A stretch of DNA of 64,000 bases, taken from positions 5,312,001 through 5,376,000 of the forward strand of contig OZ241917.1 in NCBI GenBank assembly GCA_965203805.1, written 5' to 3'. The position numbers and the translations under genes were made by a program. Numbering within the stretch: position 1 is the stretch's first letter; the number at the start of each line of letters is the position of its first letter. The DNA is from Candidatus Latescibacterota bacterium. GTDB lineage: Bacteria; Latescibacterota; UBA2968; GCA-2709665. The notes beneath the pieces are model-generated. The model did no database searches. It was not told the DNA's origin and saw only the letters and a list, made by a program, of their open reading frames with translations. Shown piece by piece: positions 34,119 to 57,633 of this stretch.

Positions 34119-35192
34119 ATGCCAACTGTTGACAAAATCAAGGAGGCGCGAAACGCCCTGGATGCCCACGTTCGGGAGACGGTAGCCTGGCACTTCAATC
34201 CCGAAACCGGCTGCCCGTTCTGGCTGGAATTCGCGGACGGGCTGGATTTCGATCCATGCAGGGAGATCGGCGGTTTCGCGGATCTGAAGATCCTGGGCCA
34301 TTTTCAGGACGACTGGCTTCGCGGGGGCCCGGTGCGCCGCTGGATTCCCCGGGGAACCGCCGGCAAGCGGACGTATGTCTTCGAAACGGGAGGGTCCACG
34401 GGCGTCCCGAAATACCGGATCAGCCAGGATGACTTTCAGATCGACTACGAGACGTTCAGCAGGCACCTTTCAAACGAGACGTTTCCACGCGGCGCCGACT
34501 GGCTGATGCTGGGTCCGACGGGTCCGAGGCGGCTGCGTCTGGCGGTTGAATACCTCTGCCAGATCCGCGGAGGGGTCTGTTTTCTGGTGGACCTGGATCC
34601 CAGATGGGTGAACAAGCTGATTGCGCGCGGCGCCCTCCAGGAACTGGATCTCTACAAGGCGCACGTGATCGACCAGGCGCTGACCATTCTGCGGGCGAAC
34701 GACAACGTGAGGTGCATGTTTACAACCCCGAAGCTCCTCGAAGCGATCTGTGAGAAGATCTCGCTTGAAAAGGCCGGGATTACCGGGATATTCTGCGGGG
34801 GAACCGAGATGGACGCGCAGTTCAACCGGTTCGCCAGGGAGGAGCTCGTTCCCGGCATCGATTTCGTGCCGACGTACGGAAATACGCTGATGGGGTTGGC
34901 GTATTCCAAGCCGCTGGAGCCTTCGGACAACTATGCCATTACCTATTATCCGCCGGTCCCCCGGGCGGTGATCGAACTGGTGGACCCCGATTGTCCGGAC
35001 CTGCTGGTGGATTACAACACCGTTGGCCGCGTGATGTTGACCACGCTGACCCGCGAGTTCTTCATGCCGCGGTTTCTGGAACGGGACGAGGGAGAACGGG
35101 CCGAACCGAGCGGGGCGTTTCCGTGGGACGGGGTGAGGAATCTGGGATTGTTATCCGAAATGCAGGAGTCGGTCGTCGTTGGCGTATACTGA
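34119..35192 (+). CDS. EhpF/GriC-like short adenylating enzyme (arylcarboxylate reductase component)
   Basis: WHFNPETGCPFWL, FETGGSTGVPK P-loop, GPTGP, DLDPRWV, GGTE, YGNT and C-terminal VGVY match motifs I recall from EhpF. Confidence 0.75.
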   Translation: MPTVDKIKEARNALDAHVRETVAWHFNPETGCPFWLEFADGLDFDPCREIGGFADLKILGHFQDDWLRGGPVRRWIPRGTAGKRTYVFETGGSTGVPKYRISQDDFQIDYETFSRHLSNETFPRGADWLMLGPTGPRRLRLAVEYLCQIRGGVCFLVDLDPRWVNKLIARGALQELDLYKAHVIDQALTILRANDNVRCMFTTPKLLEAICEKISLEKAGITGIFCGGTEMDAQFNRFAREELVPGIDFVPTYGNTLMGLAYSKPLEPSDNYAITYYPPVPRAVIELVDPDCPDLLVDYNTVGRVMLTTLTREFFMPRFLERDEGERAEPSGAFPWDGVRNLGLLSEMQESVVVGVY

Positions 35193-35231
35193 CCCGTTAC
35201 CGACTTCTCCAGGCTGAAGGCAAAGGTTGAA

Positions 35232-36677
35232 TTGACGCCCCAGGAGGATGGTGTGACCCATATCCCGGTTTTGCGGGCGGGAGAGCCATACGCAAGTCTG
35301 GACGTCCGGGACGTCCCGCACATTCAGACCGGAGAGCCCCTCGTCCGCGTGAGCCACGCGAATCCGGGTCTGATCGCGAGGGATCTGAACGCCGCCAAGG
35401 CGAATAAACGCGCCCTGGAGGCGTTCAGCGTCTCCGAACTTGCAGCCGTGACGCGCAGGGCCGGCCGGCTGTTCGCCGAGGGGGACCTGCCGCTGGATCG
35501 TCAGTCGCAATCGCCGGGGGACTACGTCCGCCAGGTATCGGGCACCACAGGGATTCCCGAGACCCTCTGCCGGGAGAACATGGAAAAGATCCGGCTGGCC
35601 TGTACCCAGATCGACGAGGTGCTCGCCGGTCTCACGCGCCATCTGGATCTGTCGGTGCTGGACCGGGGGTGGGGTCCGCAAAACGGCCGCCCGCTGAGCT
35701 ACGTCTGCCAGACCGACGCGCTAGGCGCCGTGTTGCCGAGCAATTCGCCCGGCGTGCACTCGCTCTGGGTTCCGTCGCCGTCGCTGAAGGCGCCCCTGGT
35801 GCTGAAGCCCGGCCGCGAGGACCCGTGGACGCCCTTTCGGATTGCACAGGCGTTTATTGCCGCGGGATGCCCGCGCGAGGCGTTCGGGATCTATCCGACC
35901 GGGCACGCCGGCGCCAACGAAATCCTCTTGAGGTGCGGGCGCTCCCTTTTTTTCGGGGGCGGCGCAACCGTCGCGCCGTGGCTGCACGATCCGCGGGTTT
36001 CGATTCACGGTCCGGGCCGCAGCAAGGTGATTCTGGGTGAAGACCTGGTCCACCGCTGGGAGGATTTTCTGGATGTGATCCTGGTTTCGATCGCGGCCAA
36101 CGGCGGACGTTCCTGCATCAACGCGTCGGGTGTGTGGACGCCCGCGCACGGCCGCGAGATTGCCCATGCGATTGCGCACCGGCTCGCGCGAATCGAGCCC
36201 AGGCGGCTGGATGACCCGGAAGCGCGGATTGCCGCATTTTCCAATCCTGCTGCTGCCGCCCGGATTTCAAATGGTATCGACGTCCACCTGAAAAGCGGTG
36301 GCGCGGAGGACCTGACCGCGGGCCTGCGCGGCGGCCGGCTTGCCGAACGGGACGGCCTGACGTTTCTGAATCCGACGCTGGTCTGGTGCGAATCTCCGGA
36401 ACACCCCCTGGCGAATACGGAATACCTTTTCCCGTACTCGAGCGTGGTCGAAGCGCCCCGGGCGGGATTGGCGGACCGGATCGGGCCCAGCCTGGTGGTC
36501 ACGGTGTTGACGGAGGATGAGGATTTCGTGAGTGAGTTGCTGAATTCACCGCACGTGGACCGACTGAACGCGGGTCCCATACCCACGAACCGGATTTCGT
36601 GGGACCAGCCTCACGAAGGCAATCTGTTCGAGCATCTCTACCGCCAGCGCGCCTTTCAGTTCGCAAGCAGAGCATAG
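35232..36677 (+). CDS. Aldehyde dehydrogenase-fold acyl reductase (GriD/LuxC-like)
   Basis: LPSNSPGVH, LKPG, FFGG, HGPGRSK, catalytic Cys in GRSCINAS, EYLFP; follows the EhpF-like gene; start TTG 35232 or GTG 35253. Confidence 0.75.
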   Translation: MTPQEDGVTHIPVLRAGEPYASLDVRDVPHIQTGEPLVRVSHANPGLIARDLNAAKANKRALEAFSVSELAAVTRRAGRLFAEGDLPLDRQSQSPGDYVRQVSGTTGIPETLCRENMEKIRLACTQIDEVLAGLTRHLDLSVLDRGWGPQNGRPLSYVCQTDALGAVLPSNSPGVHSLWVPSPSLKAPLVLKPGREDPWTPFRIAQAFIAAGCPREAFGIYPTGHAGANEILLRCGRSLFFGGGATVAPWLHDPRVSIHGPGRSKVILGEDLVHRWEDFLDVILVSIAANGGRSCINASGVWTPAHGREIAHAIAHRLARIEPRRLDDPEARIAAFSNPAAAARISNGIDVHLKSGGAEDLTAGLRGGRLAERDGLTFLNPTLVWCESPEHPLANTEYLFPYSSVVEAPRAGLADRIGPSLVVTVLTEDEDFVSELLNSPHVDRLNAGPIPTNRISWDQPHEGNLFEHLYRQRAFQFASRA

Positions 36678-36687
36678 CAATCCTCGA

Positions 36688-37803
36688 ATGGAACCCTTCG
36701 ACCTCCATCCCGCCCCGCGTGTGATATTCGGGGAAGGCGCGCTGGCGCAGCTCCCGGACCTGGCGGACGGACTGGGTGGACGACGAATTCTGCTCGTGAC
36801 CGATCCGGGCATCGTCAGCGCGGGCATCGCGGACAGGGCGCTGGGATTGCTGTGCGGATCGGCACGCGATGTCTTCATGTTCGACGACGTGGCGGAGAAC
36901 CCCACGACGGACCACGTGGAAGCCGGTGTGGCAGCCGCCTCGGCGCACGGCGGGATCGATCTGATCGTGGGGCTGGGCGGCGGGAGCGCGATGGACTGCG
37001 CCAAGGGCGTCAATTTCATTCTCACGAACGGCGGCCGCATGGAGGACTACCGCGGGATGGGCCGGGCAAAGCGGCCCATGTTGCCGTCGATCGGCATTCC
37101 CACCACCGCGGGCACGGGAAGCGAGGCCCAGTCCTATGCGCTCATCGCCGCGCGGGACACCCATGAGAAGATGGCCTGCGGCGACCTCAAGGCGCGGTTT
37201 CGCGGCGTCATTCTGGATCCTGCGCTCACGGCAAGCGTCCCAGGGCCTGTGGCGGCCGCGACGGGAATCGACGCCGTGGCGCACGCCGTGGAGAGTTACG
37301 TCTGCACAAAGCGGAACGCGGTGTCCCGCATGTACGCGCGCGAGGCGTGGCGGCTTCTCTCGTCGGGCTTCGGAGGGTCTCTCGAACCGGCGGCGGATCC
37401 GGACGCCAGGGCCGCTATGCTTCTGGGCGCGCATTTCGCGGGAGCGGCGATCGAGAACGCGATGCTCGGCGCCGCCCACGCGTGCGCAAACCCGCTGACG
37501 GCCCGGTACGGCATCACCCACGGCGTTGCGGTTGGCGTGATGCTTCCGCCGGTGATCCGGTTCAACCGGGAAACACACGGGGCGCGCTACGAAGGGTTCG
37601 GGATGACGGCCGGCGCGCTTTCCGATCGGATCGATCGGTTCGCACGCGCGGCGGAATTGCCGGCGCGTCTTCGTGAACTGCGCGTCGAACGGGAGCGGCT
37701 CCCCGAATTGGCGGCAGACGCGGCGCGCCAATGGACGGGAACGTTCAACCCGCGGCCGGTCCGGGAAACCGATTTTCTGGCGCTATATGAAGAGACGTAT
37801 TGA
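36688..37803 (+). CDS. Iron-containing alcohol dehydrogenase
   Basis: GGGSAMD, PTTAGTGSE, DAVAHAVE and HACANPL...HG metal ligands. Confidence 0.92.
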   Translation: MEPFDLHPAPRVIFGEGALAQLPDLADGLGGRRILLVTDPGIVSAGIADRALGLLCGSARDVFMFDDVAENPTTDHVEAGVAAASAHGGIDLIVGLGGGSAMDCAKGVNFILTNGGRMEDYRGMGRAKRPMLPSIGIPTTAGTGSEAQSYALIAARDTHEKMACGDLKARFRGVILDPALTASVPGPVAAATGIDAVAHAVESYVCTKRNAVSRMYAREAWRLLSSGFGGSLEPAADPDARAAMLLGAHFAGAAIENAMLGAAHACANPLTARYGITHGVAVGVMLPPVIRFNRETHGARYEGFGMTAGALSDRIDRFARAAELPARLRELRVERERLPELAADAARQWTGTFNPRPVRETDFLALYEETY

Positions 37804-38944
37804 ATTTCATGCGCGGCGAAAAGTGGGTCGCGGATGGAACATTTTCCTCATATTGTGCATCTTGTACATACCGGTTCCCGTCCGTGTGGCCGCCGAGACG
37901 TCCTGGCCGCGGTTCCGGGGCGACGCGCAATCCACGGGGCTCGCCCGGGAATCGCTGCCGGAGAGCCTCGTCGTCGCGTGGACGGCCCGCGTACCCGAGG
38001 GCATCGAGTCCACGGCGGCGATCCGGAAGGGTTCGGTTTTCGTCGGCGGGCTGGACGGCAATCTCTATGCGTTCGATTTCGACACCGGCGCGTTGAAATG
38101 GAAGTACCCGGCCGGGGGGGAAGTCAAGGCTTCCCCGCTGGTGGCGGCAAATGCGGTTTTCTTCGGAGACGGAGACGGCGGTTTTCACGCCGTGGATGCG
38201 TCATCGGGCAAGGGATTGTGGACCTATCGGACCGGGGGAGAGATCATCTCTTCCGCCACGGCGTACGAAGGCCGGGTGATCTTCGGGTCCTACGATCAGT
38301 TCCTGTACTGTCTCAATGCGGAGGACGGGTCGCTGGTCTGGAAGCTGGAGACCGAGGGATACGTTCACGGAACCCCGGCCATCTGGGGCGAACGCGCGCT
38401 TGTCGCCGGTTGCGACGGTTTGCTGCGGATGGTCAACGCGGCTGGCGGAGATGAAGTATCGAGGGTGGAACTGTTCGACTACGTGGCGGCAAGCGTTGCC
38501 GTGCGCAATGGTCGGGCCTATGCCGGTACTTTCGGCAACCAGGTCCTGGGTATGGATCTGCGGGCGGCGAAGGTCCTGTGGCGGTACGAACACCCAAGCC
38601 GGAAGTTTCCCTTTTACGCGTCACCGGCGGTTGCGCAAGGCCGCGTGATTGTCGCCGGGCGCGACAGGATGGTGCGCGCGCTTCGTCCGGACAACGGCGA
38701 CCTTTTGTGGATTCGCGCGTTCCGTTCCCGGGTCGACTCCTCACCGGTTGTCGCGGGTAGACGGGTGTTTGTGGGCACGACCGGCGGGAGGATCGTGGCG
38801 CTGGACCTGGACTCGGGCGAACCGGGGTGGGAATTCGTGACCGGTTCGGGCGTCCTGGCGTCGCCGAGCGTGGCCGGCGGGAGGCTTGTGATCGGCACCA
38901 CAGACGGAACGCTATACTGTTTTGGCGGCGAGGTAAGCGAATGA
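37787..38944 (+). CDS. PQQ-type (BamB-like) beta-propeller repeat protein, exported
   Basis: SWPRFRGD followed by repeated A.D..TG...W blades; overlaps both neighbours. Confidence 0.85.
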   Translation: MKRRIEFHARRKVGRGWNIFLILCILYIPVPVRVAAETSWPRFRGDAQSTGLARESLPESLVVAWTARVPEGIESTAAIRKGSVFVGGLDGNLYAFDFDTGALKWKYPAGGEVKASPLVAANAVFFGDGDGGFHAVDASSGKGLWTYRTGGEIISSATAYEGRVIFGSYDQFLYCLNAEDGSLVWKLETEGYVHGTPAIWGERALVAGCDGLLRMVNAAGGDEVSRVELFDYVAASVAVRNGRAYAGTFGNQVLGMDLRAAKVLWRYEHPSRKFPFYASPAVAQGRVIVAGRDRMVRALRPDNGDLLWIRAFRSRVDSSPVVAGRRVFVGTTGGRIVALDLDSGEPGWEFVTGSGVLASPSVAGGRLVIGTTDGTLYCFGGEVSE

Positions 38945-40287
38945 CCTCTCAGGTTCACATTCCGGAACCCGCGACCTCCAGGAAAGAATGGAAGGAAACC
39001 GCGGTCGGCAGCGTTTTCGTGTCCAACTATCCGCCGTATTCGTTCTGGCGGGACGAGCACAACGCGCAGGTCGAAGCGATGTTGCGGGATTCGGACCCTT
39101 CGGCCAGGGATGTGCCGCTCGGACTGTATCTGCATATCCCGTTTTGCAGGAAGCGATGCAAGTTCTGCTATTTTCGCGTGTATACGGACCGCAACAGTTC
39201 CGAAATTCAACTCTATCTGGATGCGCTGGCCCGAGAGGTGGAAAATTACGCCACGCTGCCGAGAATCGCCGGACGCAGCCTGCAATTCGTCTACTTCGGC
39301 GGGGGAACGCCCTCGTACATCAGCGTGAAGCACCTGAACGCGCTGGTGGACCGGCTGAAGGCCGTATTGCCGTGGGACGACGCCGAAGAGGTGGCGTTCG
39401 AGTGCGAGCCGGGCACGCTTTCGCAGCCGAAGGTAGAGGCCATTCGCGGGATCGGCGTGACTCGCCTGAGTCTGGGTCTGGAGAACCTGAACGACGGGAT
39501 ACTCAAGGAGAACGGCCGGGCGCACGTCGGCAAAGAGATCTACCGGTCCATGGACTGGGTGAAGGCGCAGGCGTTCGAACAGGTCAACGTGGACCTGATT
39601 TCGGGAATGGTGGGCGAGACCTGGCAGACCTGGAAGGAGACGGTGCAGGGTACGATCGACCTGGACCCCGACAGCGTGACGATCTATCAGATGGAGCTGC
39701 CGTTCAATACGACGTATTCCCGCTCGCTTTTGGAAGGAAACGGATTGACGGTTGCCGACTGGGACACGAAGCGCGCCTGGCATGCCCATGCGATCGACGC
39801 GTTCGGCGAGGCCGGATACGAGATCTCGAGTGCCTATACGATGGTCAAGAAAGGTCGACCGAAGCGGTTTGCCTATCGGGACGCGCTCTGGCGCAGCGCG
39901 GACCTGATCGGCGCGGGCGTCGCGTCGTTTTCGCACGTGGGCGGGATACACTTTCAGAATCACACGCAGTGGGACCCCTATGTCGACGCATGTATGCAGG
40001 GGCGCCTGCCGCTGAACCGGTCCTTTCTGCCCACCGACGAGGAGCGCCTGGTACGCGAGATGATCCTGCAACTCAAGCTCGGACGGATCGAGACCGGCTA
40101 TTTCAGGGAGAAATTCGGTGTGGAAATCCTGGAACGGTTTGGCGAGGCCTACCGGAAGCTGAGAGATTACGGTATGCTGGAATTCGATTCGCAGAGTATT
40201 ACTCTGAGCCGTGATGGACTATTGCGCGTCGATCAGTTGTTGCCTGAGTTCTATCACGAAAAGTATCGCAATTCGCGTTATACTTGA
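38941..40287 (+). CDS. HemN-like (class C methyltransferase-type) radical SAM enzyme
   Basis: YLHIPFCRKRCKFC CxxxCxxC, YFGGGTPS, RLSLG, NVDLI and a HemN C-terminal domain; ATGA overlap. Confidence 0.88.
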   Translation: MTSQVHIPEPATSRKEWKETAVGSVFVSNYPPYSFWRDEHNAQVEAMLRDSDPSARDVPLGLYLHIPFCRKRCKFCYFRVYTDRNSSEIQLYLDALAREVENYATLPRIAGRSLQFVYFGGGTPSYISVKHLNALVDRLKAVLPWDDAEEVAFECEPGTLSQPKVEAIRGIGVTRLSLGLENLNDGILKENGRAHVGKEIYRSMDWVKAQAFEQVNVDLISGMVGETWQTWKETVQGTIDLDPDSVTIYQMELPFNTTYSRSLLEGNGLTVADWDTKRAWHAHAIDAFGEAGYEISSAYTMVKKGRPKRFAYRDALWRSADLIGAGVASFSHVGGIHFQNHTQWDPYVDACMQGRLPLNRSFLPTDEERLVREMILQLKLGRIETGYFREKFGVEILERFGEAYRKLRDYGMLEFDSQSITLSRDGLLRVDQLLPEFYHEKYRNSRYT

Positions 40288-40396: not shown

Positions 40397-40666
40397 ATGA
40401 CTGTGAACAAGCCAATCCGGGAAGATAGAATCGTTACTGATCCGCTGATATTGGCCGGGAAACCAACCATAAGAGGTACTCGGATTTCGGTGGAGTTGAT
40501 TATGGAATTGCTGGACGGGGGAAGGTGCGAAGCCGACATCATTCGTATGTATTCGCACATTACCCCGGAGGATATCCGAGCCTGTCGGGAGTATGCCGCT
40601 ACCGGCGCGAAGTTGTCCAACGTGACCTGGACGGATATTGACGCCATTATGGATGGCAAACGGTAG
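40397..40666 (+). CDS. DUF433 family antitoxin-like protein
   Basis: IVTDPLILAGKPTIRGTRISV...ITPEDIRACREYA; AGGAGA RBS; lower GC than the flanks. Confidence 0.88.
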   Translation: MTVNKPIREDRIVTDPLILAGKPTIRGTRISVELIMELLDGGRCEADIIRMYSHITPEDIRACREYAATGAKLSNVTWTDIDAIMDGKR

Positions 40667-40696: not shown

Positions 40697-40715
40697 GAGG
40701 AGGCGGAGTCAATCT

Positions 40716-41924: not shown

Positions 41925-41955
41925 TCCGTTGAAATCATACATAAACCGAGATTTA

Positions 41956-42123
41956 ACATGGATATACAGGATGGACAGGACAAAAATCCAGAGGCGGGCA
42001 ACCACAAGGGTGGCCTCTACGAATACAAGCTGAACGCGGTCGGACAGGATGAATCGGTTCGCTGCCGTTACTCGTTCTCTCGCGCTTTTTGGTCTTTATC
42101 CTGTTCATCCTGTCCATCCATGT
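41956..42123. repeat. MITE-like element with about 30-bp imperfect inverted arms enclosing a REP
   Basis: ACATGGATATACAGGATGGACAGGACAAAA ... CTTTATCCTGTTCATCCTGTCCATCCATGT; a related half copy is at about 29103-29130. Confidence 0.7.
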
Positions 42124-42167
42124 AAGTTTAATCTCTTGAATTCATCAGGTTTGGGAGAGGAGATCGC

Positions 42168-44285
42168 GTGTTGAATCAACTCCAAAGGGGTATGGTGGCT
42201 GTCATTCTTCTGGGTCTGCTGGCAAATGCCTCGTATGCCGCGGACGACAAGGCGGATGAGGATGCCGGGGACGATCTCCCGGTTTACGCCGGTGAAGAGA
42301 TCGTGGTGACCGAGAGCAAGGAAAAGGTGGCCACGATCGGTTCCGTGGCCAGCAAGATTCCGGTTCCTCTGAGCGAAACGCCCGCGAGCGTCAGCGTGGT
42401 CAATCGCGGCCTGATCGACCACCAGAGCGGCGTGGTCCTCGGCGACGCGCTTCGCAACGTGAGCGGCGTAAACGTACAGACGGTGTTCGGCGTGACGGAT
42501 TTCTTCGTGATTCGCGGATTCGACTCGCTGTCGAGCGGGCTGGTTCTGACGGACGGCGCGTCCGAGCCGGAGGCCACGTTCTACAACCTTTACAACCTGG
42601 ACCGGGTGGAGGTGCTGAAAGGGCCGGGCGCGTTTCTCTATGGCGCCAATCCGTTGTCCGGATCGGTCAATCTGAACCGGAAGCAACCCGTCTTCGAGCC
42701 CATGTTCCAGGCCAGGGGCGCTTACGGGCCATTCGGGAGTCTGCGCGGAACCGTCGATGGGAACTGGGCGGACCCTGCGCAGGGGGTGGCCGCGCGTTTC
42801 AACGGCCTCCGGCAGGTCTCGGACAACTACCGTGACGATAAGCACAGCGGGATCTGGGCGTTGAATCCAGCCGTCACCTTGCGAAATGAAAAGACGACGG
42901 CGACGGCGAATCTTGAATATGTGACGAGCGAATACAAGTCGGATTCGGGGCTGCCCGTGGCGGGAGGGCAGCTGGCCGACGTGCCACGCACGCGTTCATA
43001 CCAGTCTCCGTTCGACGTTTCAGACCAGGAGATCCTCAGGGTACGGATGGATCTGCAGACCCGGTTGTCGCCGCGGGTCACGTTGCGCAACAAGCTGTAT
43101 TACACCGATTTTTCCTGGATCTCCAACGGCACGCTGTTCAACGGTGTGTATCCCAACGCCGCGGGGAGCCTGGATCTGTTCAGGACGCTGCTGCTCCTCG
43201 ACGACAGGCAAAAGGTGCTGGGCAATCAGTTCGAGCTCGTGTTTTCCTTTTCCACCGGACGGGTCAGGCATACGCTCCTGGCGGGTCTGGAACTCATGCG
43301 GTGGACGGACCGGTTTACGCTCGACGTGGCGGTCCTGCCGAATATCGATCTGTTCGAACCGGTTGAGACGGCCGCGCTCCCTTATTTCAAGGTGCCGGAC
43401 CAGTCGCGGTCGGCTGATGCCACCAGCGGCGTCGTTGCGCCCTTTGTCGTCGACCGCATTGTGTTTTCGGATGTCTTCCAGGCGTTCGTGGGCGGTCGCT
43501 TCGATCGGATACGGTACGACGACCCCGTCACGTCGACGTCGAGGGCATTCGACGAACTGAGCCCGATGGCGGGTGTGGCGCTCAATCCCGCGGAGGACCT
43601 GACCCTCTATGCCAGCGCCGGCAAGGCCTTTGCGCCGCCGTCGAGCCTCATCGCGGGGCCGCGGGACGTCGAATCTGCAACGCAGTTCGAGGCCGGCGCG
43701 AAAAAGTACCTTGTCGACAACCGTCTGCACGCGTCTGTGGCCGTCTTCGATCTGCGGAAGTACGGCATCGGCATTCCCGATGAGACCGGCGTGACGAAAC
43801 AGGACGGCGACCAGCGGTCGCGGGGTCTGGAACTGGAGATGATGGCGCGTCCCGGCGGCGGTTGCCATGTCTTTCTGACGTACGCGTATTCCGACGCGGA
43901 ACTGACGCGCTTTACACAAATGTTGGCCGTACCCACGCCCACCGGAATGCAGTTCCGGCACCTGGACCGGTCCGGCAACAGACCGGCCTTCTCGCCGAGG
44001 CATATCTTGAATGTCTGGAGCGCGCTGGGCTTCGACAGCGGCGTCGAACTGGGCCTGGGCGCCAGGTACGTGGCCAGCCAGTTCATCGCCGAGGACAACC
44101 GGTTCAGTATCGGCAGCGTGCTGACGCTCGACGCGTCGGCATCGTACACGTACAAACAGGCGACGATCAGGCTCAATGCCAGGAACCTGACGGACCGCGA
44201 GTACGAGACACGCGGGTTCGGCGCGATGTCGGTGATCCCTGCGCCCCCGTTCGGTCTGTACAGCGCCATCCAGGTAGAGCTATGA
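42168..44285 (+). CDS. TonB-dependent receptor (siderophore-receptor-like)
   Basis: EEIVVT TonB box, ETPASVSVV plug, IRGF, DRVEVLKGP, NARNLTDREY; GAGGAG RBS. Confidence 0.92.
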   Translation: MLNQLQRGMVAVILLGLLANASYAADDKADEDAGDDLPVYAGEEIVVTESKEKVATIGSVASKIPVPLSETPASVSVVNRGLIDHQSGVVLGDALRNVSGVNVQTVFGVTDFFVIRGFDSLSSGLVLTDGASEPEATFYNLYNLDRVEVLKGPGAFLYGANPLSGSVNLNRKQPVFEPMFQARGAYGPFGSLRGTVDGNWADPAQGVAARFNGLRQVSDNYRDDKHSGIWALNPAVTLRNEKTTATANLEYVTSEYKSDSGLPVAGGQLADVPRTRSYQSPFDVSDQEILRVRMDLQTRLSPRVTLRNKLYYTDFSWISNGTLFNGVYPNAAGSLDLFRTLLLLDDRQKVLGNQFELVFSFSTGRVRHTLLAGLELMRWTDRFTLDVAVLPNIDLFEPVETAALPYFKVPDQSRSADATSGVVAPFVVDRIVFSDVFQAFVGGRFDRIRYDDPVTSTSRAFDELSPMAGVALNPAEDLTLYASAGKAFAPPSSLIAGPRDVESATQFEAGAKKYLVDNRLHASVAVFDLRKYGIGIPDETGVTKQDGDQRSRGLELEMMARPGGGCHVFLTYAYSDAELTRFTQMLAVPTPTGMQFRHLDRSGNRPAFSPRHILNVWSALGFDSGVELGLGARYVASQFIAEDNRFSIGSVLTLDASASYTYKQATIRLNARNLTDREYETRGFGAMSVIPAPPFGLYSAIQVEL

Positions 44286-45559: not shown

Positions 45560-45568
45560 GAAGATGGA

Positions 45569-48857: not shown

Positions 48858-49298
48858 GTGCCAAGCGAATTCCACACCACGCGACGCGTAGAATTTTCGG
48901 ATACGGACATGGCCGGGATCGTGCACTTTTCCCGGTTTTTCGTTTTCATGGAGGCGGCCGAGCACGCGTTCCTGCGTTCGCTCGGCACCAGCGTGCATAC
49001 CCGATGGGAAGGGCGCAGGGTGGGGTGGCCCCGCGTGGGCGCGTCGTGCGACTATCTGGAACCGGCACGGTTCGAAGACGTGCTGGACGTCCGTCTGAAG
49101 GTCGTCAGAAAGGGAACGAGCTCGATCACGTACGGGTTCGAGTTTCGCCGCGGCGGCGTTTCGATTGCGCGGGGCCGGTTGAGTACGGTGTTCTGCGAAT
49201 GCACCCCGGGCCGGCCGTTCCGCGCCATCCCCATCCCGGGCGCCATCGCGGACCGGATCCAGGAAGCGGAGGAGGGGGAGGATGACGCTGCGGGCTGA
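48858..49298 (+). CDS. 4HBT/YbgC-like hot-dog acyl-CoA thioesterase
   Basis: RVEFSDTDMAGIVHFSRFF..ME motif. Confidence 0.9.
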   Translation: MPSEFHTTRRVEFSDTDMAGIVHFSRFFVFMEAAEHAFLRSLGTSVHTRWEGRRVGWPRVGASCDYLEPARFEDVLDVRLKVVRKGTSSITYGFEFRRGGVSIARGRLSTVFCECTPGRPFRAIPIPGAIADRIQEAEEGEDDAAG

Positions 49299-49941
49299 GC
49301 GGATATCGAAACAGTATGGCGACGTGTCCGTGCTTCGGGAGGTTTCGTTCGAGACGGGACGCGGTCAGTCCGTGGCGGTCGTCGGGCCGTCGGGATCGGG
49401 AAAGAGCACGCTCCTCCACGTACTGGGCACCCTGGACAGACCGTCGTCGGGCCGTGTGGAGATTGACGGCCGGGACCCCTACGCCCTCTCCGACAAGGAG
49501 CTGGCGCGCTTTCGGAATCACGGGATCGGGTTCGTGTTCCAGGACCACCATCTGCTGCCACAGTATTCAGTACTGGAGAATGTGCTGATTCCCACGCTGG
49601 CGTCCGGCAACGCCGGATCCGGCGACGGGGAGCGGGCACGGGACCTGATCGAACGGGTCGGACTCGCGCATCGGGCCGAACACCGCCCGGCCGCTCTGTC
49701 CGGCGGCGAACGCCAGCGGGCGGCCGTGGCTCGAGCGCTGGTCAACAGGCCGGCGCTTCTCCTGTGCGATGAGCCCACGGGCAGCCTGGATCGGGCGCGC
49801 GCCGATGAAATCGGCGACCTGATATTCGAACTGCATGCCCGGGAGAACACGATCCTGATCGGGGTCACGCATAGCCCGGAAATGGCCGCACGGTTCGAAC
49901 GCACCCTTGAGTTGCGGGAGGGGACTTGCGTAGAAGCCTGA
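49282..49941 (+). CDS. ABC transporter ATP-binding protein (LolD/MacB-like)
   Basis: GPSGSGKST, IGFVFQ, LSGGERQR, DEPTG and VTH motifs. Confidence 0.93.
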   Translation: MTLRAERISKQYGDVSVLREVSFETGRGQSVAVVGPSGSGKSTLLHVLGTLDRPSSGRVEIDGRDPYALSDKELARFRNHGIGFVFQDHHLLPQYSVLENVLIPTLASGNAGSGDGERARDLIERVGLAHRAEHRPAALSGGERQRAAVARALVNRPALLLCDEPTGSLDRARADEIGDLIFELHARENTILIGVTHSPEMAARFERTLELREGTCVEA

Positions 49942-53368: not shown

Positions 53369-54667
53369 ATGAATCGGATGACGCTGGCCTCTACCGTTTG
53401 CTGTCTGCTGGTCGCAACCGTACCGGCTGCGTCGGACTGGCCGCATTGGCGCGGGCCGAACCGCAACGGGCTCGTGGACGGAGCGAATCCGCCCGTTGAG
53501 TGGAGCGAAGGGAAGAATATCCGATGGAAAGCGCCCATTCCCGGTCTGGGCCACGCAACGCCGGTCGTCTGGGGTGAGCGGATTTTTGTGCAGACAGCCG
53601 TCATGACTGACAAGGTAGTGGAGAACACCGGAGGGGGAAGGCGCCGGCCCCCGCCCAATCTGTTTCAATACAGGGTCCTGGCCCTGGATCGCCGGACCGG
53701 AGAGAAAATATGGGACAGGACGGTCCGGGAGGCCCGGCCGCACGAGGGAATGCACCGGACGGCGTCGTTCGCGTCACCATCGGGCATCACGGACGGAGAA
53801 AACCTCTATGCGTATTTCGGCTCACAGGGCCTCTATTGCCTCGATATGGACGGCAATCTGAAGTGGGAGAAAGACCTGGGCAAATACTGGAGCAGGGCCG
53901 CTTTCGGCGAGGGGGCTTCGCCGATGATCCACGGCAGCACCCTGGTGATCAACTGGGACCACGAAGGGGATTCCTTCATTGTCGCGCTGGACAAGGCGTC
54001 GGGCAGGGAGCTCTGGCGCAAGGCGCGGAACGAGGTGACGTCCTGGTCCACGCCGCTGCCGGTCGACCACGGCGGCCGGACCCAGGTGATCGTCAGCGCG
54101 TCGCGCCGCACCCGTAGCTACGACCTGAAGACCGGGGCGTTGATCTGGGAATGCGGCGGGCTGGGGACGAACGTGATTCCGACGCCGCTGTACGAAAACG
54201 GGGTGGTGTACGTGGCCAGCGGCCACAGGGACCCGGCCATGCAGGCAATTGATCTGGCCGGGGCGAAGGGCGACGTCTCGGGTTCGGACTCGGTGTTGTG
54301 GTCGATCTCCCGGAACACACCCTATGTGTCGTCACCCCTGCTCTACGGCGGCCGGCTGTTTCTCATGAAGGGCCGGGGAGCGATCCTGTCCTGCTATAAC
54401 GCCGGGACCGGAAAGCCACTCTTCGGGCCGGAACGCCTGGACGGGATGGGTTTCGTTTACGCGTCGCTGGTAGGGGCGGGCGGCCGCGTGTATATCTGCG
54501 ATCTCGAGGGAACCACGCTCGTTGTCAGGAACGGCCCTGAATTCGAGGTTCTGGCGAAGAACACCCTGGATGAAGGGAGCGGGGCGTCGCCGGTGGTTGT
54601 GGGGGACGCTATTTACCTCAGGGGACGCAGTCACCTCTATTGCATTGCGGAAGACAAGCGGAATTGA
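53369..54667 (+). CDS. PQQ-type beta-propeller repeat protein with signal peptide
   Basis: DWPHWRGPNRNG and repeated LD..TG..W blades; AAGGAG RBS before ATG 53369. Confidence 0.88.
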   Translation: MNRMTLASTVCCLLVATVPAASDWPHWRGPNRNGLVDGANPPVEWSEGKNIRWKAPIPGLGHATPVVWGERIFVQTAVMTDKVVENTGGGRRRPPPNLFQYRVLALDRRTGEKIWDRTVREARPHEGMHRTASFASPSGITDGENLYAYFGSQGLYCLDMDGNLKWEKDLGKYWSRAAFGEGASPMIHGSTLVINWDHEGDSFIVALDKASGRELWRKARNEVTSWSTPLPVDHGGRTQVIVSASRRTRSYDLKTGALIWECGGLGTNVIPTPLYENGVVYVASGHRDPAMQAIDLAGAKGDVSGSDSVLWSISRNTPYVSSPLLYGGRLFLMKGRGAILSCYNAGTGKPLFGPERLDGMGFVYASLVGAGGRVYICDLEGTTLVVRNGPEFEVLAKNTLDEGSGASPVVVGDAIYLRGRSHLYCIAEDKRN

Positions 54668-54707
54668 TCGATCGGAGACGCGGAATCGAATGGAGAGAGG
54701 AGTTTTG

Positions 54708-55706
54708 ATGGACCGGTTTGCAGGCATGACGCGCGTTATCGGCGCAGCGATCGTAATCCTTCTGGGTGCGCTCGGATGCGAAGCGCCGGACCGAGGGAGA
54801 GAAACAACCGAACCCCAGCGCCGGTTCCTGAGCGTGGGCACCGCTCCGCCGGGGGGCGCGTTCTTCGTGGTCGGCGGCGCGATCGCGCAGGTCGTGGACG
54901 ACCGCGCGGGCGACCTGTCGTGGGACGTATCCGCGGAGGCGACCAAGGGCACGCAGGAGAACATCCGCCGGCTCGTGCGCGGGGAGCTGGATTTCGCGCT
55001 GGCCAATGCCGCGATATCCTATTTTGCGGTGCGGGGCGAGGGCGCCTGGGGCGACAAGCAGGCCATCAACGCCGTGATGACGCTGGCCCCGAATGTCGCC
55101 CTCTTCGTGACGCCGGAAGGCACGGGGATCCGCGCCATCGGCGACCTCAGGGGCAAGCGGGTTGTGGTCGGTCCCGCGGGCGCCGGGTTCGAGTATTTCC
55201 TCGCGCCGATACTGAATGCTCACGGTGTCGCCTACGAGGACTTCAGCCCGTTGCACAATACGCAGGCCGGCGCCGTGGATATGCTTGCGGACGGGTCCGC
55301 CGCCGCGGCCTTTCTGGGCGGCGCCGTGCCGACGGCGTCCATCACCCAGGCGAGCGCTTCGCAGGACATCCGCTTCATCCCCTTCGGCGTTCCCGAAAAA
55401 GAACGTCTGTTCCGGGACTATCCGTTCTTCAACGCGGCAACTATTCCCGCGAATACCTATCGCGGCCAGGCAGAGGCCTTCGACGGCATGAACGTGGGTT
55501 CGATGCACCTCGTGACGCCTGCAGATCTGGACGAGGAGACGGTCTACCGGTTTACCAGGATCCTCTACGAGAACCGCGCGGACGTGGTGAAGAAGCATCC
55601 CGCGGGCAAAGCCATCCAGCCAGGGAACGTGATCCGGGATACCGGCACACCCTTCCATCCCGGGGCGATCAGGTTTTACAGGGAAATCGGAATCTGGCCC
55701 AACTGA
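54708..55706 (+). CDS. TAXI family TRAP solute receptor (probable lipoprotein)
   Basis: LGALGC lipobox, GTAPPGGAFF, TKGTQENI and PFHPGA motifs. Confidence 0.9.
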   Translation: MDRFAGMTRVIGAAIVILLGALGCEAPDRGRETTEPQRRFLSVGTAPPGGAFFVVGGAIAQVVDDRAGDLSWDVSAEATKGTQENIRRLVRGELDFALANAAISYFAVRGEGAWGDKQAINAVMTLAPNVALFVTPEGTGIRAIGDLRGKRVVVGPAGAGFEYFLAPILNAHGVAYEDFSPLHNTQAGAVDMLADGSAAAAFLGGAVPTASITQASASQDIRFIPFGVPEKERLFRDYPFFNAATIPANTYRGQAEAFDGMNVGSMHLVTPADLDEETVYRFTRILYENRADVVKKHPAGKAIQPGNVIRDTGTPFHPGAIRFYREIGIWPN

Positions 55707-55707
55707 C

Positions 55708-57633
55708 ATGCTCGAAATTCGGCTTTTTCGCATCCTGGCGGTCCTGCTGGGTATCTTCGTCCTGGCTGAAGTCAACTATCCGGGACTGACGCCTCAAGCC
55801 CAACTGGCTTTCTTTGCCATGTTGGGCTTGAGTCTTGTATTTCTGAAACACCCGGTCCACGCAGGCGCAAGCGGGTTCCGCCGGACGCTGGATGCCTTCC
55901 TCGTTGCGGCCGTGCTCTTCTGTTTCGGCTATGTGCTGATTCAGACCGAACCGCTCTTCGAAGCCTTCTGGCTGGGGGGGCGCAGTCTGGGCAACCGCGC
56001 GGGACTGGAACAGCCGCTGGATTGGGCGGTCGGTCTGGCCGGCCTGATTCTCATCCTGGAAGCGACCCGCCGCGCCATCGGGCTCACGCTGCCGCTGCTG
56101 GCTCTCGCGTTCGTGGCGTATGCCGCCTACGGTCACGTCATGCCCGACTGGCTCTTCCCGCACAGGGGGTACGGCTGGGAGCGCATTGTCTCCCAGACTT
56201 TTCTGCATTCGCAGGGCGTGTTCGGCATCGCGCTGAAAGTGATGTTCACGTACGTGTTTCTGTTCGTTCTGTTCGGTACGACGCTGGAAGGGACGGGCGC
56301 GACCGGGTACGTACTGGATGCCGCGCGCAGGTTTTTTGGAAGGCGCACCGGCGGGCCCGCGAAGGTTGCCGTCGTCTCGTCGGGGATCATGGGATCGCTG
56401 TCCGGGAGCGCGGTCGCGAACACGGCCACAACCGGTACGTTTACGATTCCAATGATGCGTTCGGCAGGATTCCGGCCCGTGGCGGCAGGGGGGATCGAAG
56501 CGGCCGCCAGTTCGGGCGGGGCGCTGGTGCCGCCGATTATGGGCGCCGGCGCCTACATGATGCTGGAGATGGTGGATCCGGCGGTCACCTACCTGGAGAT
56601 CGTCAGGGCGGCGCTCATCCCCGCGGTGTTCTACTATGCCGCGCTTCTGCTGATCGTCCACTTCCACGCCCGGCGCATCCGGGTTGCCGCGGGAGATGAA
56701 CGTCCCCCGGATCGCCCGCGGGGCGCCCCGGGCCTTGTATTCCTCGTGGCGCTGGTGAGCCTGATCGTGCTGATCGTCCTCGGGTATACGCCGTTTCGGG
56801 CGGTCAGCATCGCGCTGGTCTGCACGCTCCTGGCGGCCGCACTGAATCCGGCAACGCGCATGGGGCCCCGCGCGTTGCTGCGCGCCGTGGAAGGCGCGGC
56901 CCGCGGCGGCGTGTCCCTCATCGCGGCGGCTGCCTGCGTGGGCATCATCATCGGCGTGGTCACCCTCACGGGGATCGGCGCCAGGCTGCCCGGCGCCATC
57001 CTGCCGCTGGCTCAGGACAATCTGGTCCTGGCGCTGATTCTGCTGATGGGCTCCACGATCATCCTGGGAATGGGCCTGCCGTCGGCCGTTTGTTATCTGC
57101 TGATGGCCACGCTCGTTGGCCCTGTCCTTGGCGAACTGGGCGTTGTGCCCCTGGCGGCGCATATGTTCATCTTCTACTTCGGGATGATGTCGATGGTGAC
57201 GCCGCCCGTGGCGCTGGCCGCTTACACCGCGGCCGCAATCGCGAAGGCGGACATCATGCGCACGGGCCTCGCGGCGTTTCGGTTCGCCCTGGTCGGTTTC
57301 GCCCTGCCCTACGCCTTCGTACTGCATCCCGAACTGCTTCTCGTCTCCCCGGATCTTGCGTCGACCGTCGTCAACGTCCTCGTCGTCTTCGCCGGAATTC
57401 TCCCACTGGCCGCGGCAATCTCCGGCTATGGCTTCGCGCCTCTGAATGCCTGGCAGCGTGCGGTGCTACTGGTTGCGGCGCTTCTCCTCTTCCTCACCCC
57501 GTCCGGAAGTCTTCGGTTCTGGATTCAGGGGTCCGCCGTCCTCGTTGCCGGAATCGTCGCGTTGATGAACCGGCGGTCCGCCGGCCGGGCGTCTTCGTCA
57601 CCGGACGACGGCGCTGATACTGCTGACCGGTGA
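55708..57633 (+). CDS. TAXI-TRAP fused 4TM/12TM permease
   Basis: GGPAKVAV, SGSAVAN, EAAASSGG..PPIMGA, ILGMGLP and TPPVALAA motifs. Confidence 0.92.
   Translation: MLEIRLFRILAVLLGIFVLAEVNYPGLTPQAQLAFFAMLGLSLVFLKHPVHAGASGFRRTLDAFLVAAVLFCFGYVLIQTEPLFEAFWLGGRSLGNRAGLEQPLDWAVGLAGLILILEATRRAIGLTLPLLALAFVAYAAYGHVMPDWLFPHRGYGWERIVSQTFLHSQGVFGIALKVMFTYVFLFVLFGTTLEGTGATGYVLDAARRFFGRRTGGPAKVAVVSSGIMGSLSGSAVANTATTGTFTIPMMRSAGFRPVAAGGIEAAASSGGALVPPIMGAGAYMMLEMVDPAVTYLEIVRAALIPAVFYYAALLLIVHFHARRIRVAAGDERPPDRPRGAPGLVFLVALVSLIVLIVLGYTPFRAVSIALVCTLLAAALNPATRMGPRALLRAVEGAARGGVSLIAAAACVGIIIGVVTLTGIGARLPGAILPLAQDNLVLALILLMGSTIILGMGLPSAVCYLLMATLVGPVLGELGVVPLAAHMFIFYFGMMSMVTPPVALAAYTAAAIAKADIMRTGLAAFRFALVGFALPYAFVLHPELLLVSPDLASTVVNVLVVFAGILPLAAAISGYGFAPLNAWQRAVLLVAALLLFLTPSGSLRFWIQGSAVLVAGIVALMNRRSAGRASSSPDDGADTADR

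Follow-up and report, generated by a model that had tools for sequence, protein, structure and literature searches.

A modular halogenase gene cluster in a Candidatus Latescibacterota genome, possibly tailoring a small aromatic acid

The stretch of DNA described here, called the window below, comprises 64,000 nucleotides (nt) of the genome of a Candidatus Latescibacterota bacterium (assembly GCA_965203805.1, contig OZ241917.1, positions 5,312,001 to 5,376,000 of the forward strand). At 34119-57633 of the window lies a cluster of about 18 co-oriented genes on the + strand, which combines a PaaK-family CoA ligase, a compact flavin-dependent halogenase and a HemN-like radical S-adenosylmethionine (SAM) enzyme with a predicted reductive arm, a glycosyltransferase, exported beta-propellers and transport systems. 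The cluster is tentatively read, at somewhat less than even confidence, as a modular system that tailors a small aromatic carboxylic acid without a polyketide synthase (PKS) or nonribosomal peptide synthetase (NRPS). An original prediction, made from the letters of the DNA, had proposed a small-molecule or cofactor system of about 17 genes.

Features of the cluster

The features below come from a listing of open reading frames (ORFs), from Pfam and NCBIfam scans and from sequence matches in the Protein Data Bank (PDB). An antitoxin-like DUF433 gene inserted among them is described with the other insertions.

34119-35192, +, EhpF/GriC-like truncated ANL adenylase, 357 amino acids (aa); PDB match to EhpF (3l2k/3hgu), E 3e-42
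35232-36677, +, aldehyde dehydrogenase (ALDH)-superfamily protein; Pfam Aldedh 42 bits, best PDB match KauB at 1e-9
36688-37803, +, iron-containing (group III) alcohol dehydrogenase (Fe-ADH); Pfam Fe-ADH 149.7 bits, ADH_Fe_C 113 bits
37787-38944, +, propeller 1, exported 8-bladed BamB-like beta-propeller; Pfam Beta-prop_ACSF4 197.8 bits (cut-off 133), PQQ_2
38941-40287, +, HemN-like (class C type) radical SAM enzyme; Pfam Radical_SAM 68 bits, HemN_C 26 bits
40716-41924, +, propeller 2, exported PQQ_2/BamB-like beta-propeller; Pfam PQQ_2 140 bits, signal-peptide-like N-terminus
42168-44285, +, TonB-dependent receptor, siderophore-receptor subfamily; NCBIfam TIGR01783 264.7 bits (cut-off 223.5), Pfam Plug and barrel
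44282-45559, +, PaaK-family aryl/acyl-CoA ligase; PDB phenylacetate-CoA ligase 4r1l, 5e-61
45569-46828, +, flavin-dependent halogenase, compact phenol/pyrrole-type clade; Pfam Trp_halogenase 90 bits (cut-off 21)
46885-48177, +, GT4 glycosyltransferase; Pfam Glycos_transf_1 101.9 bits and GT4 N-terminal domains
48250-48750, +, 166-aa membrane protein with about 5 transmembrane segments (Kyte-Doolittle); look-alikes in the ESM Atlas named 'DMT superfamily permease', score 0.97
48858-49298, +, cytoplasmic hotdog-fold (4HBT/YbgC-like) acyl-CoA thioesterase; Pfam 4HBT 43 bits, NCBIfam YbgC 65 bits (under cut-off)
49282-49941, +, ATP-binding cassette (ABC) ATPase of the LolD/YbbA/MacB type; NCBIfam LolD 250 bits (cut-off 307.75), YbbA 197 bits
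49926-53246, +, 1106-aa permease with two FtsX domains; Pfam FtsX twice, MacB_PCD 23.6 bits against a cut-off of 27
53369-54667, +, propeller 3, exported PQQ_2-type beta-propeller; Pfam PQQ_2 86 bits, signal-peptide-like N-terminus
54708-55706, +, TAXI-family TRAP solute-binding protein with a lipoprotein-like signal; NCBIfam TIGR02122 246.7 bits (cut-off 84.35), PDB TAXI proteins at about 1e-36
55708-57633, +, fused TRAP permease (DctQM type); NCBIfam TIGR02123 549.9 bits (cut-off 320.65)

The co-orientation and close spacing that had been predicted were borne out, with about 18 genes, DUF433 included, where about 17 had been claimed. Gene starts were placed from the translations, and the gaps computed from those starts are, in gene order and with DUF433 as the sixth gene, 39, 10, -17, -4, 109, 49, 243, -4, 9, 56, 72, 107, -17, -16, 122, 40 and 1 nt. 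The widest, 243 nt, is the spacer between propeller 2 and the TonB receptor (41925-42167). Overlaps of 4-17 nt join Fe-ADH to propeller 1 (start over stop), propeller 1 to the radical SAM gene (stop over start), the TonB receptor to the PaaK-like gene (4 nt), the thioesterase to the LolD-type gene, and the latter to the FtsX permease gene. The ALDH-like gene sits 39 nt downstream of the EhpF-like gene, and the TAXI and TRAP permease genes are 1 nt apart. The overlapping genes are read as probable operon coupling, which is counted in favour of the function proposed below.

No strand switch accompanies the 5' border at 34119, because the co-oriented run begins at 29160; the 3' border at 57633 coincides with one. 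The upstream part of the run (29160-34099, +) holds a PcRGLX/GH127-like glycoside hydrolase and two GFO/IDH/MocA oxidoreductases, the second ending only 19 nt before the EhpF-like gene. These genes are more than 11 kb from the halogenase, outside the 10-kb flanks of the loci compared below, and L042, the sole locus that reaches upstream of the EhpF-like gene (by 1.1 kb), has no GFO match there.

The G+C content of the cluster (0.58-0.68) is similar to that of its flanks, and the cluster does not appear to be a recent island, save for the region at about 40-42 kb with its two small insertions. Signal-like hydrophobic N-termini are found in the three propellers and the TAXI protein and in none of the enzymes. 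Promoter and terminator scans gave counts at or near shuffle level, with the sites inside genes, and Rfam returned 0 matches across the whole window.

In agreement with the original prediction, no PKS, NRPS, terpene synthase or PP-binding/carrier domain was detected with Pfam and NCBIfam in any ORF scanned at 34-58 kb. The 41925-42167 spacer, the sole gap roomy enough for a carrier protein, contains no convincing ORF. The gene families that had been named, the likeness to EhpF included, were all recovered on the + strand.

Occurrence in other genomes

A halogenase profile built from 20 sequences was run against a species-level genome collection and gave at least 600 matched stretches, 587 of which encode a relative. 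The best 80 loci (numbered with the prefix L) were used with 10-kb flanks. Twenty-one window proteins were compared with these loci by tblastn, and a gene was counted when it lay on the same strand within 10 kb at 40% identity or more. By hand-assigned labels the loci comprise 46 from Poribacteria, 14 from Latescibacterota, 4 from Gemmatimonadota, 10 from classes of Acidobacteriota, 1 from KSB1, 1 from 'Deltaproteobacteria' and 4 without a label.

Co-occurrence of these genes elsewhere, on which the original prediction had staked itself, was found. The PaaK-like gene is present in 57 of the 80 loci, the radical SAM gene in 55, TAXI in 51, propeller 1 in 46 and Fe-ADH in 37. Lower counts were obtained for GT4 (26), the TonB receptor (24), propeller 2 (24), the thioesterase (20), the 166-aa protein (19), the LolD-type ATPase (19) and the FtsX permease (18). 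The figures for the ALDH-like gene (15), the TRAP permease (8) and the EhpF-like gene (4) are lower bounds, because a 10-kb flank seldom reaches them; the EhpF-like gene is 11.4 kb upstream of the halogenase. Propeller 3 is confined to the closest clade, L001-L009 (9/80), where it follows the permease. Propeller 2 often occurs as tandem paralogues (42 proteins in 23 sources, namely 22 loci and the window).

The gene order of the loci agrees with that of the window, and an independent all-against-all clustering of 1274 ORFs gave the same ranking of partner genes. Because the colinearity persists in other phyla, the arrangement is regarded as more than chance. The closest locus named, L001 (Latescibacterota), is 90-98% identical to the window over the entire cluster, and cross-phylum identity is 57-75%. 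The original prediction had mentioned similar gene sets in Planctomycetes and Acidobacteria; none of the 80 best loci is labelled Planctomycetes. Among clusters of look-alikes of the ALDH-like protein, however, Planctomycetota and Acidobacteriota are the most frequent sources, which is a lead only.

The genes do not behave as the single fixed unit of 17 that had been supposed. In the Latescibacterota loci (n=14) the PaaK-like, GT4, 166-aa and thioesterase genes are each present in 14, propeller 1, the radical SAM gene, propeller 2, the TonB receptor and the LolD-type ATPase in 13, and FtsX in 12. The Poribacteria loci (n=46) carry Fe-ADH in 25 cases, propeller 1 in 28, the radical SAM gene in 30, the PaaK-like gene in 36 and TAXI in 40, in most cases directly after the halogenase; the TonB receptor is found in 0, and GT4, thioesterase, LolD and FtsX in 1 each. 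Six loci from Acidobacteria/Vicinamibacteria have only the radical SAM gene, directly upstream of the halogenase, and in the two of them examined (L061, L076) it is flanked by cytochrome P450 genes, followed by a classical AMP-binding ligase. Thermoanaerobaculia (n=3) combine the halogenase with TonB receptor, symporter, GT4, LolD and FtsX genes, and with the thioesterase in 2 of 3, and have no PaaK-like or radical SAM gene within their short contigs. The cluster would accordingly consist of separable modules, with the halogenase seen beside each of them, a pattern to be read with the bias of a halogenase query in mind. The recurrent core appears to be the PaaK-family CoA ligase, the compact halogenase and the HemN-like radical SAM enzyme.

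Seventy-eight halogenases were placed in a quick maximum-likelihood tree with IQ-TREE. All 46 Poribacteria sequences and two unlabelled rows form one clade (97), and the window pairs with L001 (99) inside a clade of Latescibacterota and Gemmatimonadota. Phylum labels change 14 times on the tree, as compared with 30.7 times in shuffles. The rows labelled Gemmatimonadota nest among Latescibacterota rows, which may be due to labelling or to transfer. From this quick tree, inheritance of the halogenase seems mostly vertical, largely following the phylum labels. Mostly vertical descent together with the cross-phylum identity argues for strong constraint on a shared function, and the EhpF-like protein, 72-100% identical among the best 120 relatives listed, agrees. 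Such conservation is unusual for specialised metabolism; it is weighed as a point for an important product common to these lineages and as one against an ordinary 'antibiotic' role.

Enzymes of activation, reduction, halogenation and release

Residues 13-357 of the EhpF-like adenylase align to residues 19-366 of EhpF (366 aa), and the protein is without the C-terminal ANL subdomain. Pfam AMP-binding scores only 23.6 bits, under the cut-off, and no NCBIfam model matches. Membership of the LuxE/LuxC families was discarded, as neither gave a Pfam match even at E up to 5.

The ALDH-like protein retains the catalytic Cys ('NGGRSCINAS') and has His in place of the Glu in the KauB motif 'LEAGGKS'. 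Since the Cys is kept and the general-base Glu is absent, the protein fits thioester reduction and not a hydrolytic aldehyde dehydrogenase; it is probably a thioester reductase partner in a GriD/EhpG-like role. Fe-ADH scores under every NCBIfam equivalog cut-off. Its place after the EhpF/ALDH pair suggests further reduction to an alcohol.

The radical SAM gene occupies the frame 38827-40287 with an ATG at 38941; a longer-looking ORF in another frame (38988-40214) belongs to no family. Its product scores above the Pfam cut-offs (Radical_SAM 68 against 29.5, HemN_C 26 against 24) and has a CxxxCxxC motif ('CRKRCKFC'). Its NCBIfam scores are 173.5 for hemN (cut-off 324.95), 171 for HutW (400), 160 for HemW (205.4) and 169 for STM4012 (380), while the PDB matches include HemN (1olt, 2e-30) and the class C methyltransferase NocN (1e-25). 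The enzyme is HemN-like, and because all of these scores are under the cut-offs it is placed outside the HemN, HemW and HutW families. A ChuW-like role in haem uptake or degradation was rejected on the HutW score and on that of the TonB-hemin receptor model (82.9 against 316.85).

The PaaK-like ligase falls short of the cut-offs of NF041878 (240.9/700), TIGR02155 (207.9/646.3), FlxY (171/520), DVU1553 (156) and BagE (113). On these scores it is a member of the PaaK family and not a PaaK equivalog.

The halogenase matches 8zop (5e-65), PltA (2e-59), CndH, Mpy16, CmlS, Bmp2 and ChlB4 in the PDB, the halogenase matches ranging from 5e-65 to 1e-35. Among other flavoproteins, a geranylgeranyl reductase (3oz2) follows at 7e-19 and monooxygenases at 3e-8 or weaker. 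No tryptophan halogenase of the PrnA/RebH type is among its 32 PDB matches. Three motifs are invariant in 20 aligned sequences, namely G12-G-G14-P-A-G17 (GxGxxG), K73, and W218-F-W220-Y-I222-P223 (its W, W, I and P). K73 aligns with a Lys of 8zop ('rkygg') and of PltA ('kkfga'); the role of the active-site Lys in flavin-dependent halogenases is known from work on PrnA and RebH. WxWxIP aligns with the same motif in 8zop and PltA, and together with GxGxxG is a marker of halogenases (PMC6644159). The specific NCBIfam models CmlS (210 against 900) and QhpG (136 against 240) are not reached. The best 120 relatives listed share 64-93% identity, and the small number with a name come from metagenome-assembled genomes of Gemmatimonadetes, Latescibacteria and Poribacteria.

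Assignment of this flavoprotein as a geranylgeranyl or menaquinone reductase was rejected (GG-red-SF 135.9 against 158.8, MenJ 66.8 against 700, and 3oz2 at 7e-19 as compared with 5e-65 for the best halogenase). A protein-cofactor maturation system, with a QhpG/LodB-type flavoprotein, radical SAM enzyme, ABC exporter and propeller subunit, was likewise set aside, given the QhpG score; no QhpG-like chain is among the 32 PDB matches of the halogenase, and the cluster has no small peptide gene or room for one.

The PDB matches of the GT4 glycosyltransferase span only its donor-binding half.

Propellers and transport proteins

The AlphaFold2 model of propeller 1 has 8 blades and a mean confidence (pLDDT) of 87.4. 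Its best natural Foldseek matches are BamB proteins (TM-score 0.75-0.77), with no enzyme-like or cofactor-binding match standing out.

Both TAXI-TRAP components score above their subfamily cut-offs. The 166-aa membrane protein, which is 66-96% identical in other loci, matches no Pfam or NCBIfam family. From the model-based look-alikes, a half-size permease of the drug/metabolite transporter (DMT) type is put forward as a lead.

The 1106-aa permease has about 10 transmembrane segments and two large periplasmic domains in a transmembrane scan, as in ABC systems of type VII. Its sole PDB match is FtsX (8i6o, 5e-4), and no NCBIfam model matched. No gene for an HlyD/MacA adaptor, TolC or LolA was detected in the cluster by Pfam or NCBIfam. 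MacB/Lol-type (type VII) ABC systems are described as drawing their substrates from the membrane or periplasm (PMC12646458, PMC8333309). For this reason the inner-membrane crossing is assigned to the DMT-like protein as the better candidate, and not to the ABC system, which the original prediction had named as the exporter.

Proposed function

From the chemistry of the families, the cluster is taken, with confidence a little short of even, to tailor a small aromatic carboxylic acid in the order CoA activation, halogenation, radical SAM modification, release, reduction, glycosylation and transfer to the envelope. The acid, plausibly of the 4-hydroxybenzoate or arylacetate type, would be imported through the TonB receptor and TAXI-TRAP (or, in other loci, a sodium:solute symporter) or made in the cell, and would then be converted to its CoA thioester. 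Its electron-rich ring would be halogenated and next modified by the radical SAM enzyme, C-methylation being the likeliest reaction, after which the hotdog thioesterase would release the acid. The EhpF-like/ALDH-like pair would reduce the carboxylate to the aldehyde, following the logic of GriC/GriD, and Fe-ADH would take it to the alcohol. GT4 would glycosylate the product, the half-size DMT-like protein would carry it across the inner membrane, and its handling in the envelope would fall to the LolD/double-FtsX ABC system together with the exported BamB-like propellers. An aryl-alcohol glycoside as the end product is conjecture from this scheme.

Aromatic (hetero)cyclic acids are substrates of characterised members of four enzyme families in the cluster, namely class C radical SAM methyltransferases, PaaK-type ligases, phenol/pyrrole-type halogenases and EhpF/GriC-type adenylases. 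An aromatic substrate is favoured on this ground and because 3 of the 80 loci have a chorismate pyruvate-lyase-like gene (PF01947, E 3e-14) within the cluster. This gene stands between the TonB receptor and PaaK-like genes in L017, where it is co-oriented with them; its orientation is reversed in L035 and L039. The aromatic-acid substrate of the original prediction fits both the four independent families and this gene.

The proposal rests on gene content, family membership, colinearity and cross-phylum co-occurrence, and its chemistry is predicted. Several observations weigh against it. No flavin reductase gene is among the Pfam/NCBIfam matches of the cluster and no carrier protein is encoded there; PltA, Mpy16, Bmp2 and CndH, the nearest solved halogenases, use carrier-tethered substrates. 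The radical SAM enzyme is under the cut-off of every named NCBIfam family. The chorismate lyase lead is limited to 3 of 80 loci, with no such gene in the cluster of the window. The presence of the halogenase in 80 of 80 loci holds by construction, as the loci were found with the halogenase as query; six loci (L011-L016, Poribacteria) have it without any partner within 10 kb; and the flanks rarely reach the EhpF-like gene (4/80), the ALDH-like gene (15/80), the TRAP permease (8/80) or the upstream genes. The modules are separable, Poribacteria being without the GT4/ABC module bar 1 locus each and Thermoanaerobaculia without the PaaK-like and radical SAM genes. Conservation is very high for specialised metabolism (among the best 120 listed, 72-100% identity for the EhpF-like protein and 64-93% for the halogenase). 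Finally, the combination of a CoA ligase, hotdog thioesterase, ADH and ALDH with three uptake systems resembles a catabolic locus.

This last resemblance underlies the alternative that survives best, which is nevertheless unlikely. On this view an aromatic acid, alcohol or aldehyde from the environment or a host would be taken up and then assimilated or detoxified, with import, oxidation by Fe-ADH and the ALDH-like protein, and activation by the PaaK-like ligase. Ring chemistry would fall to the radical SAM enzyme and the halogenase-like flavoprotein, while the GT4/ABC module would serve the envelope independently of its neighbours. PaaK, a hotdog thioesterase and an ALDH form a catabolic set in the paa pathway, and three kinds of importer are in or next to the cluster (TonB, TAXI-TRAP and, in 14 loci, the symporter). 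Poribacteria retain Fe-ADH, propeller 1, radical SAM enzyme, PaaK-like ligase, halogenase and TAXI without the GT4/ABC module, and in four of their loci a sulfatase gene separates Fe-ADH from the ALDH-like gene. However, the flavoprotein has the halogenase markers and is far nearer to halogenases than to monooxygenases or reductases, and we know of no catabolic role for the flavin-dependent halogenase family. The ALDH-like protein is without the general-base Glu for hydrolytic aldehyde oxidation and is paired with an EhpF-like adenylase, whose characterised relatives run in the reductive, biosynthetic direction. In Thermoanaerobaculia, moreover, the companions of the halogenase are GT4, thioesterase, LolD and FtsX genes, and neither the PaaK-like nor the radical SAM gene is among them.

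A composite origin, in which two or three unrelated operons (EhpF to radical SAM, TonB to halogenase, GT4 to propeller 3, TAXI-TRAP) are merely adjacent in Latescibacterota, is regarded as distinctly unlikely. It would account for the finding of modules apart in other phyla, for insertions at module borders (DUF433 and the hairpin element in the window; toxin-antitoxin pairs, a UvrD-like gene and a LysR gene elsewhere) and for the position of the widest gaps (243, 122, 109 and 107 nt) between modules. Against this, the halogenase stands beside a different module according to phylum, with only the radical SAM gene in 6 Acidobacteria loci, GT4/LolD/FtsX in 3 Thermoanaerobaculia loci and TAXI in 40 of 46 Poribacteria loci. 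In 12-14 of the 14 Latescibacterota loci, moreover, the two large modules are both retained in unchanged order, with identities as low as about 45-65%.

A secreted and recaptured metallophore (siderophore-like) or periplasmic cofactor, with the propellers as its periplasmic partners, is improbable. The TonB receptor scores above the siderophore-receptor cut-off (264.7 against 223.5) and is coupled to the PaaK-like gene by the 4-nt overlap. Export and import components share the cluster, and their presence in one locus is the typical siderophore layout. Propeller 1 is embedded among cytoplasmic enzymes with overlapping codons and is kept in 46 of 80 loci, and the high conservation suits a physiological rather than an antagonistic molecule. 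Yet no NRPS, NRPS-independent siderophore synthetase (IucA/IucC) or other known chelator-forming enzyme is among the Pfam/NCBIfam matches, the TonB receptor is found in 0 of 46 Poribacteria loci, and to our knowledge TAXI-TRAP systems are not siderophore importers. For propeller 1 the likeness is to the scaffold protein BamB, and nothing that resembles an enzyme or a cofactor-binding protein is prominent among its matches. A Fur-type signal was not found either, no search aimed at it having been made. A more specific version, held to be about as improbable, is an exported, used and recaptured periplasmic molecule: a halogenated, C-methylated aromatic cofactor or metallophore with the BamB-like propellers as dedicated apo-protein partners, its pathway passed on by largely vertical descent in Poribacteria, Latescibacterota and Acidobacteriota. 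It would parallel pyrroloquinoline quinone (PQQ) with its propeller dehydrogenases and the TonB receptor PqqU and, if true, would point to a possible microbial source of simple bromo-aromatics in sponges.

Relation to known systems

Contrary to the original prediction, a cluster of this kind is not undescribed. A preprint by Loureiro et al. of August 2026 (bioRxiv 10.64898/2026.08.03.742642) mined sponge metagenomes for clusters with a halogenase and an AMP-binding gene, including those of sponge-associated Latescibacterota, Poribacteria and Acidobacteriota, and named them the 'Halo_AMP pseudoclass'. It counts 840 clusters in 267 families, none matching MIBiG, with 9% of the families in Latescibacterota, 8% in Poribacteria and 16% in Acidobacteriota. 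According to the same source, the accessory genes encode radical SAM enzymes, P450s, glycosyltransferases, thioesterases, ABC and TonB-dependent transporters, toxin-antitoxin systems and, frequently, PQQ-like domains; the adenylation (A) domains match BagE/YtkN (PaaK type) and the halogenases match Bmp2 (10.64898/2026.08.03.742642). The preprint assigns no product and offers no enzymology, and its link from the arrangement called CC A to the barettins is unproven by the authors' own account (10.64898/2026.08.03.742642). CC A, from Acidobacteriota, consists of an A domain, a flavin-dependent halogenase, a radical SAM enzyme and a P450 (10.64898/2026.08.03.742642). Loci L061 and L076 of the present set match it.

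With its PaaK-like gene and halogenase 9 nt apart, the window has the gene pair that defines Halo_AMP and would be a further member of this recently flagged kind. In the text of the preprint as covered, the EhpF-like/ALDH-like/Fe-ADH reductive arm, a TAXI-TRAP link ('TRAP' occurs 0 times) and the cross-phylum modularity are absent. What the present analysis adds to that text comprises a reductive arm, a link to TAXI, a modular pattern, inheritance that is mostly vertical, a chorismate lyase lead and a structural assignment for propeller 1; the figures and supplements of the preprint may already show part of this.

In Planctomycetales strain 10988, a chorismate lyase beside a flavoprotein brominase (baaA/baaB) is the proposed route to 3,5-dibromo-p-anisic acid (10.1101/723874). 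In this and the bmp system, chorismate lyase feeds 4-hydroxybenzoate to a flavoprotein brominase without a megasynthase, so that cluster miners overlook them (10.1101/723874). Bmp2 is among the nearest solved relatives of the window halogenase, and 3 of the 80 related loci carry a chorismate lyase-like gene. In contrast, baa comprises only two clustered genes and bmp involves carrier-bound pyrrole chemistry and a coupling P450; in the passages covered, neither has a PaaK-type ligase, HemN-like radical SAM enzyme, carboxylate reductase, GT4, propellers or TAXI-TRAP, and the cluster of the window, unlike both, has no chorismate lyase gene.

For the reductive arm, the nearest parallels are GriC/GriD of grixazone and EhpF/EhpG of D-alanylgriseoluteic acid formation. 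GriC adenylates 3-amino-4-hydroxybenzoate, and the resulting acyl-AMP is reduced by GriD to the aldehyde (PMC10179220). The window likewise pairs a truncated ANL adenylase (3e-42 to EhpF) with an adjoining ALDH-superfamily protein, the latter being likened to GriD/EhpG by role and not by direct comparison. It has no phenazine or 3-amino-4-hydroxybenzoate genes, and Fe-ADH follows next.

Aryl-polyene, flexirubin and xanthomonadin clusters hold their accessory genes in one locus, and their product is bound for the outer membrane and exported by MMPL/LolA-like proteins. The window shares with them an aryl-acid ligase (FlxY 171 against 520), halogenase, hotdog thioesterase, glycosyltransferase and envelope export, but export would be by the double-FtsX ABC system. 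It has no ketosynthase, acyl carrier protein, ketoreductase or dehydratase in 34-58 kb, and therefore no polyene can be built.

Among type VII ABC systems (LolCDE-LolA, MacAB-TolC and YbbAP-TesA), the window shares a LolD/YbbA-like ATPase and an FtsX permease with large periplasmic domains (PMC8333309, PMC12646458). Its permease is single and fused, as is YbbP. The tesA gene adjoins ybbAP just as the thioesterase gene of the window adjoins its ABC genes; unlike TesA, however, this thioesterase is a cytoplasmic hotdog protein and not a secreted SGNH lipase. The window differs from LolCDE and MacAB in an ATPase under the LolD cut-off (250 against 307.75), a permease without an NCBIfam model, and the absence of a MacA-like adaptor, TolC and LolA.

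Insertions, variant architectures and neighbouring genes

Two insertions interrupt the region at about 40-42 kb:

40397-40666, +, DUF433 antitoxin-like gene; Pfam DUF433 67 bits
41956-42123, no strand, inserted hairpin element of about 170 nt in the spacer between propeller 2 and the TonB receptor; 41-nt inverted arms, 78% complementary

A DUF433 gene occurs in only one other of the 80 loci (L004), and the gene is, from its distribution, an accessory insertion outside the conserved set. The hairpin element folds at -74.5 kcal/mol (z -5.4) as RNA, contains the motif GGATGGACAGGA three times (two exact copies and one with 1 mismatch) and has no Rfam family. The corresponding junction is without it in L001, L003 and L004 and holds another insert in L002; the element thus appears to lie outside the conserved cluster.

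Toxin-antitoxin genes recur at cluster junctions, the choice being lineage-specific: DUF433, a PIN-like 162-aa protein with a 70-aa partner, or BrnA. Such insertions are present in L031, L034, L036-L040, L043, L044, L057, L058, L060, L062, L063 and L068, mostly at the junction of the PaaK-like and halogenase genes.

In 14 loci, among them L017, L020, L027, L050, L054, L065, L069, L072, L073 and L075, the halogenase is directly followed by a sodium:solute symporter (Pfam SSF), which in five of them comes after a small membrane protein of the DUF3311 family. Both the symporter and the DUF3311 protein are missing from the window. Halide as the cargo of the symporter would be pure speculation.

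The sulfatase gene between ALDH-like and Fe-ADH genes (Pfam Sulfatase 163 bits) is that of the Poribacteria loci L055, L059, L060 and L068. A further variant in Poribacteria (L019, L021-L023) has propeller 2 twice, a periplasmic binding protein, a Kelch propeller, an HAD hydrolase, the PaaK-like gene, a glucose/sorbosone dehydrogenase-type propeller, the halogenase, HAD, TAXI, a 3-keto-disaccharide hydrolase-like gene and the TRAP permease. The halogenases of L011-L016 form a sister clade, 67-70% identical to that of the window, and lie downstream of type II secretion/pilus genes (secretin, PilM, T2SSK).

Downstream of the cluster, genes for a carboxyltransferase, a family III CoA-transferase and a 7-bladed lactonase are found at 58746-62689 (-). 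In the first third of the window lies a complete type I Zorya anti-phage system (10196-17642, +), with the following genes and PADLOC E-values:

10196-11902, +, ZorA, 8e-56
11899-12780, +, ZorB, 1e-64
12777-14564, +, ZorC (EH signature), 5e-114
14685-17642, +, ZorD (SNF2), 2e-290

It is preceded by a PDC-S11 candidate defence gene (9019-10026, +; PADLOC 2e-109, Pfam DUF4268). A Uma2-family nuclease-like gene (6609-7235, +) and a SocA/Panacea antitoxin-domain gene (20564-21115, -) are located nearby. The G+C content falls to 0.47-0.50 at 8-10 kb and 18-22 kb, as compared with about 0.62 elsewhere. With its defence genes and low-G+C stretches, this region looks like a defence or mobile island.

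Implications

What the analysis contributes is a defined core of ligase, halogenase, radical SAM enzyme, propeller 1, Fe-ADH and TAXI, separable reductive and glycosylation/export modules, and a lead to 4-hydroxybenzoate as the substrate. Which organisms make many of the small brominated metabolites of sponges has long been an open question (10.64898/2026.08.03.742642). If the proposed function holds, the cluster would be a route to halogenated aromatics without PKS or NRPS, and therefore one that standard cluster miners overlook. It is highly conserved across several uncultivated phyla, some of which dominate sponge microbiomes. Should this conservation reflect a physiological molecule, such as a cofactor, a metallophore or an envelope glycoconjugate, its interest would extend beyond natural-product discovery.

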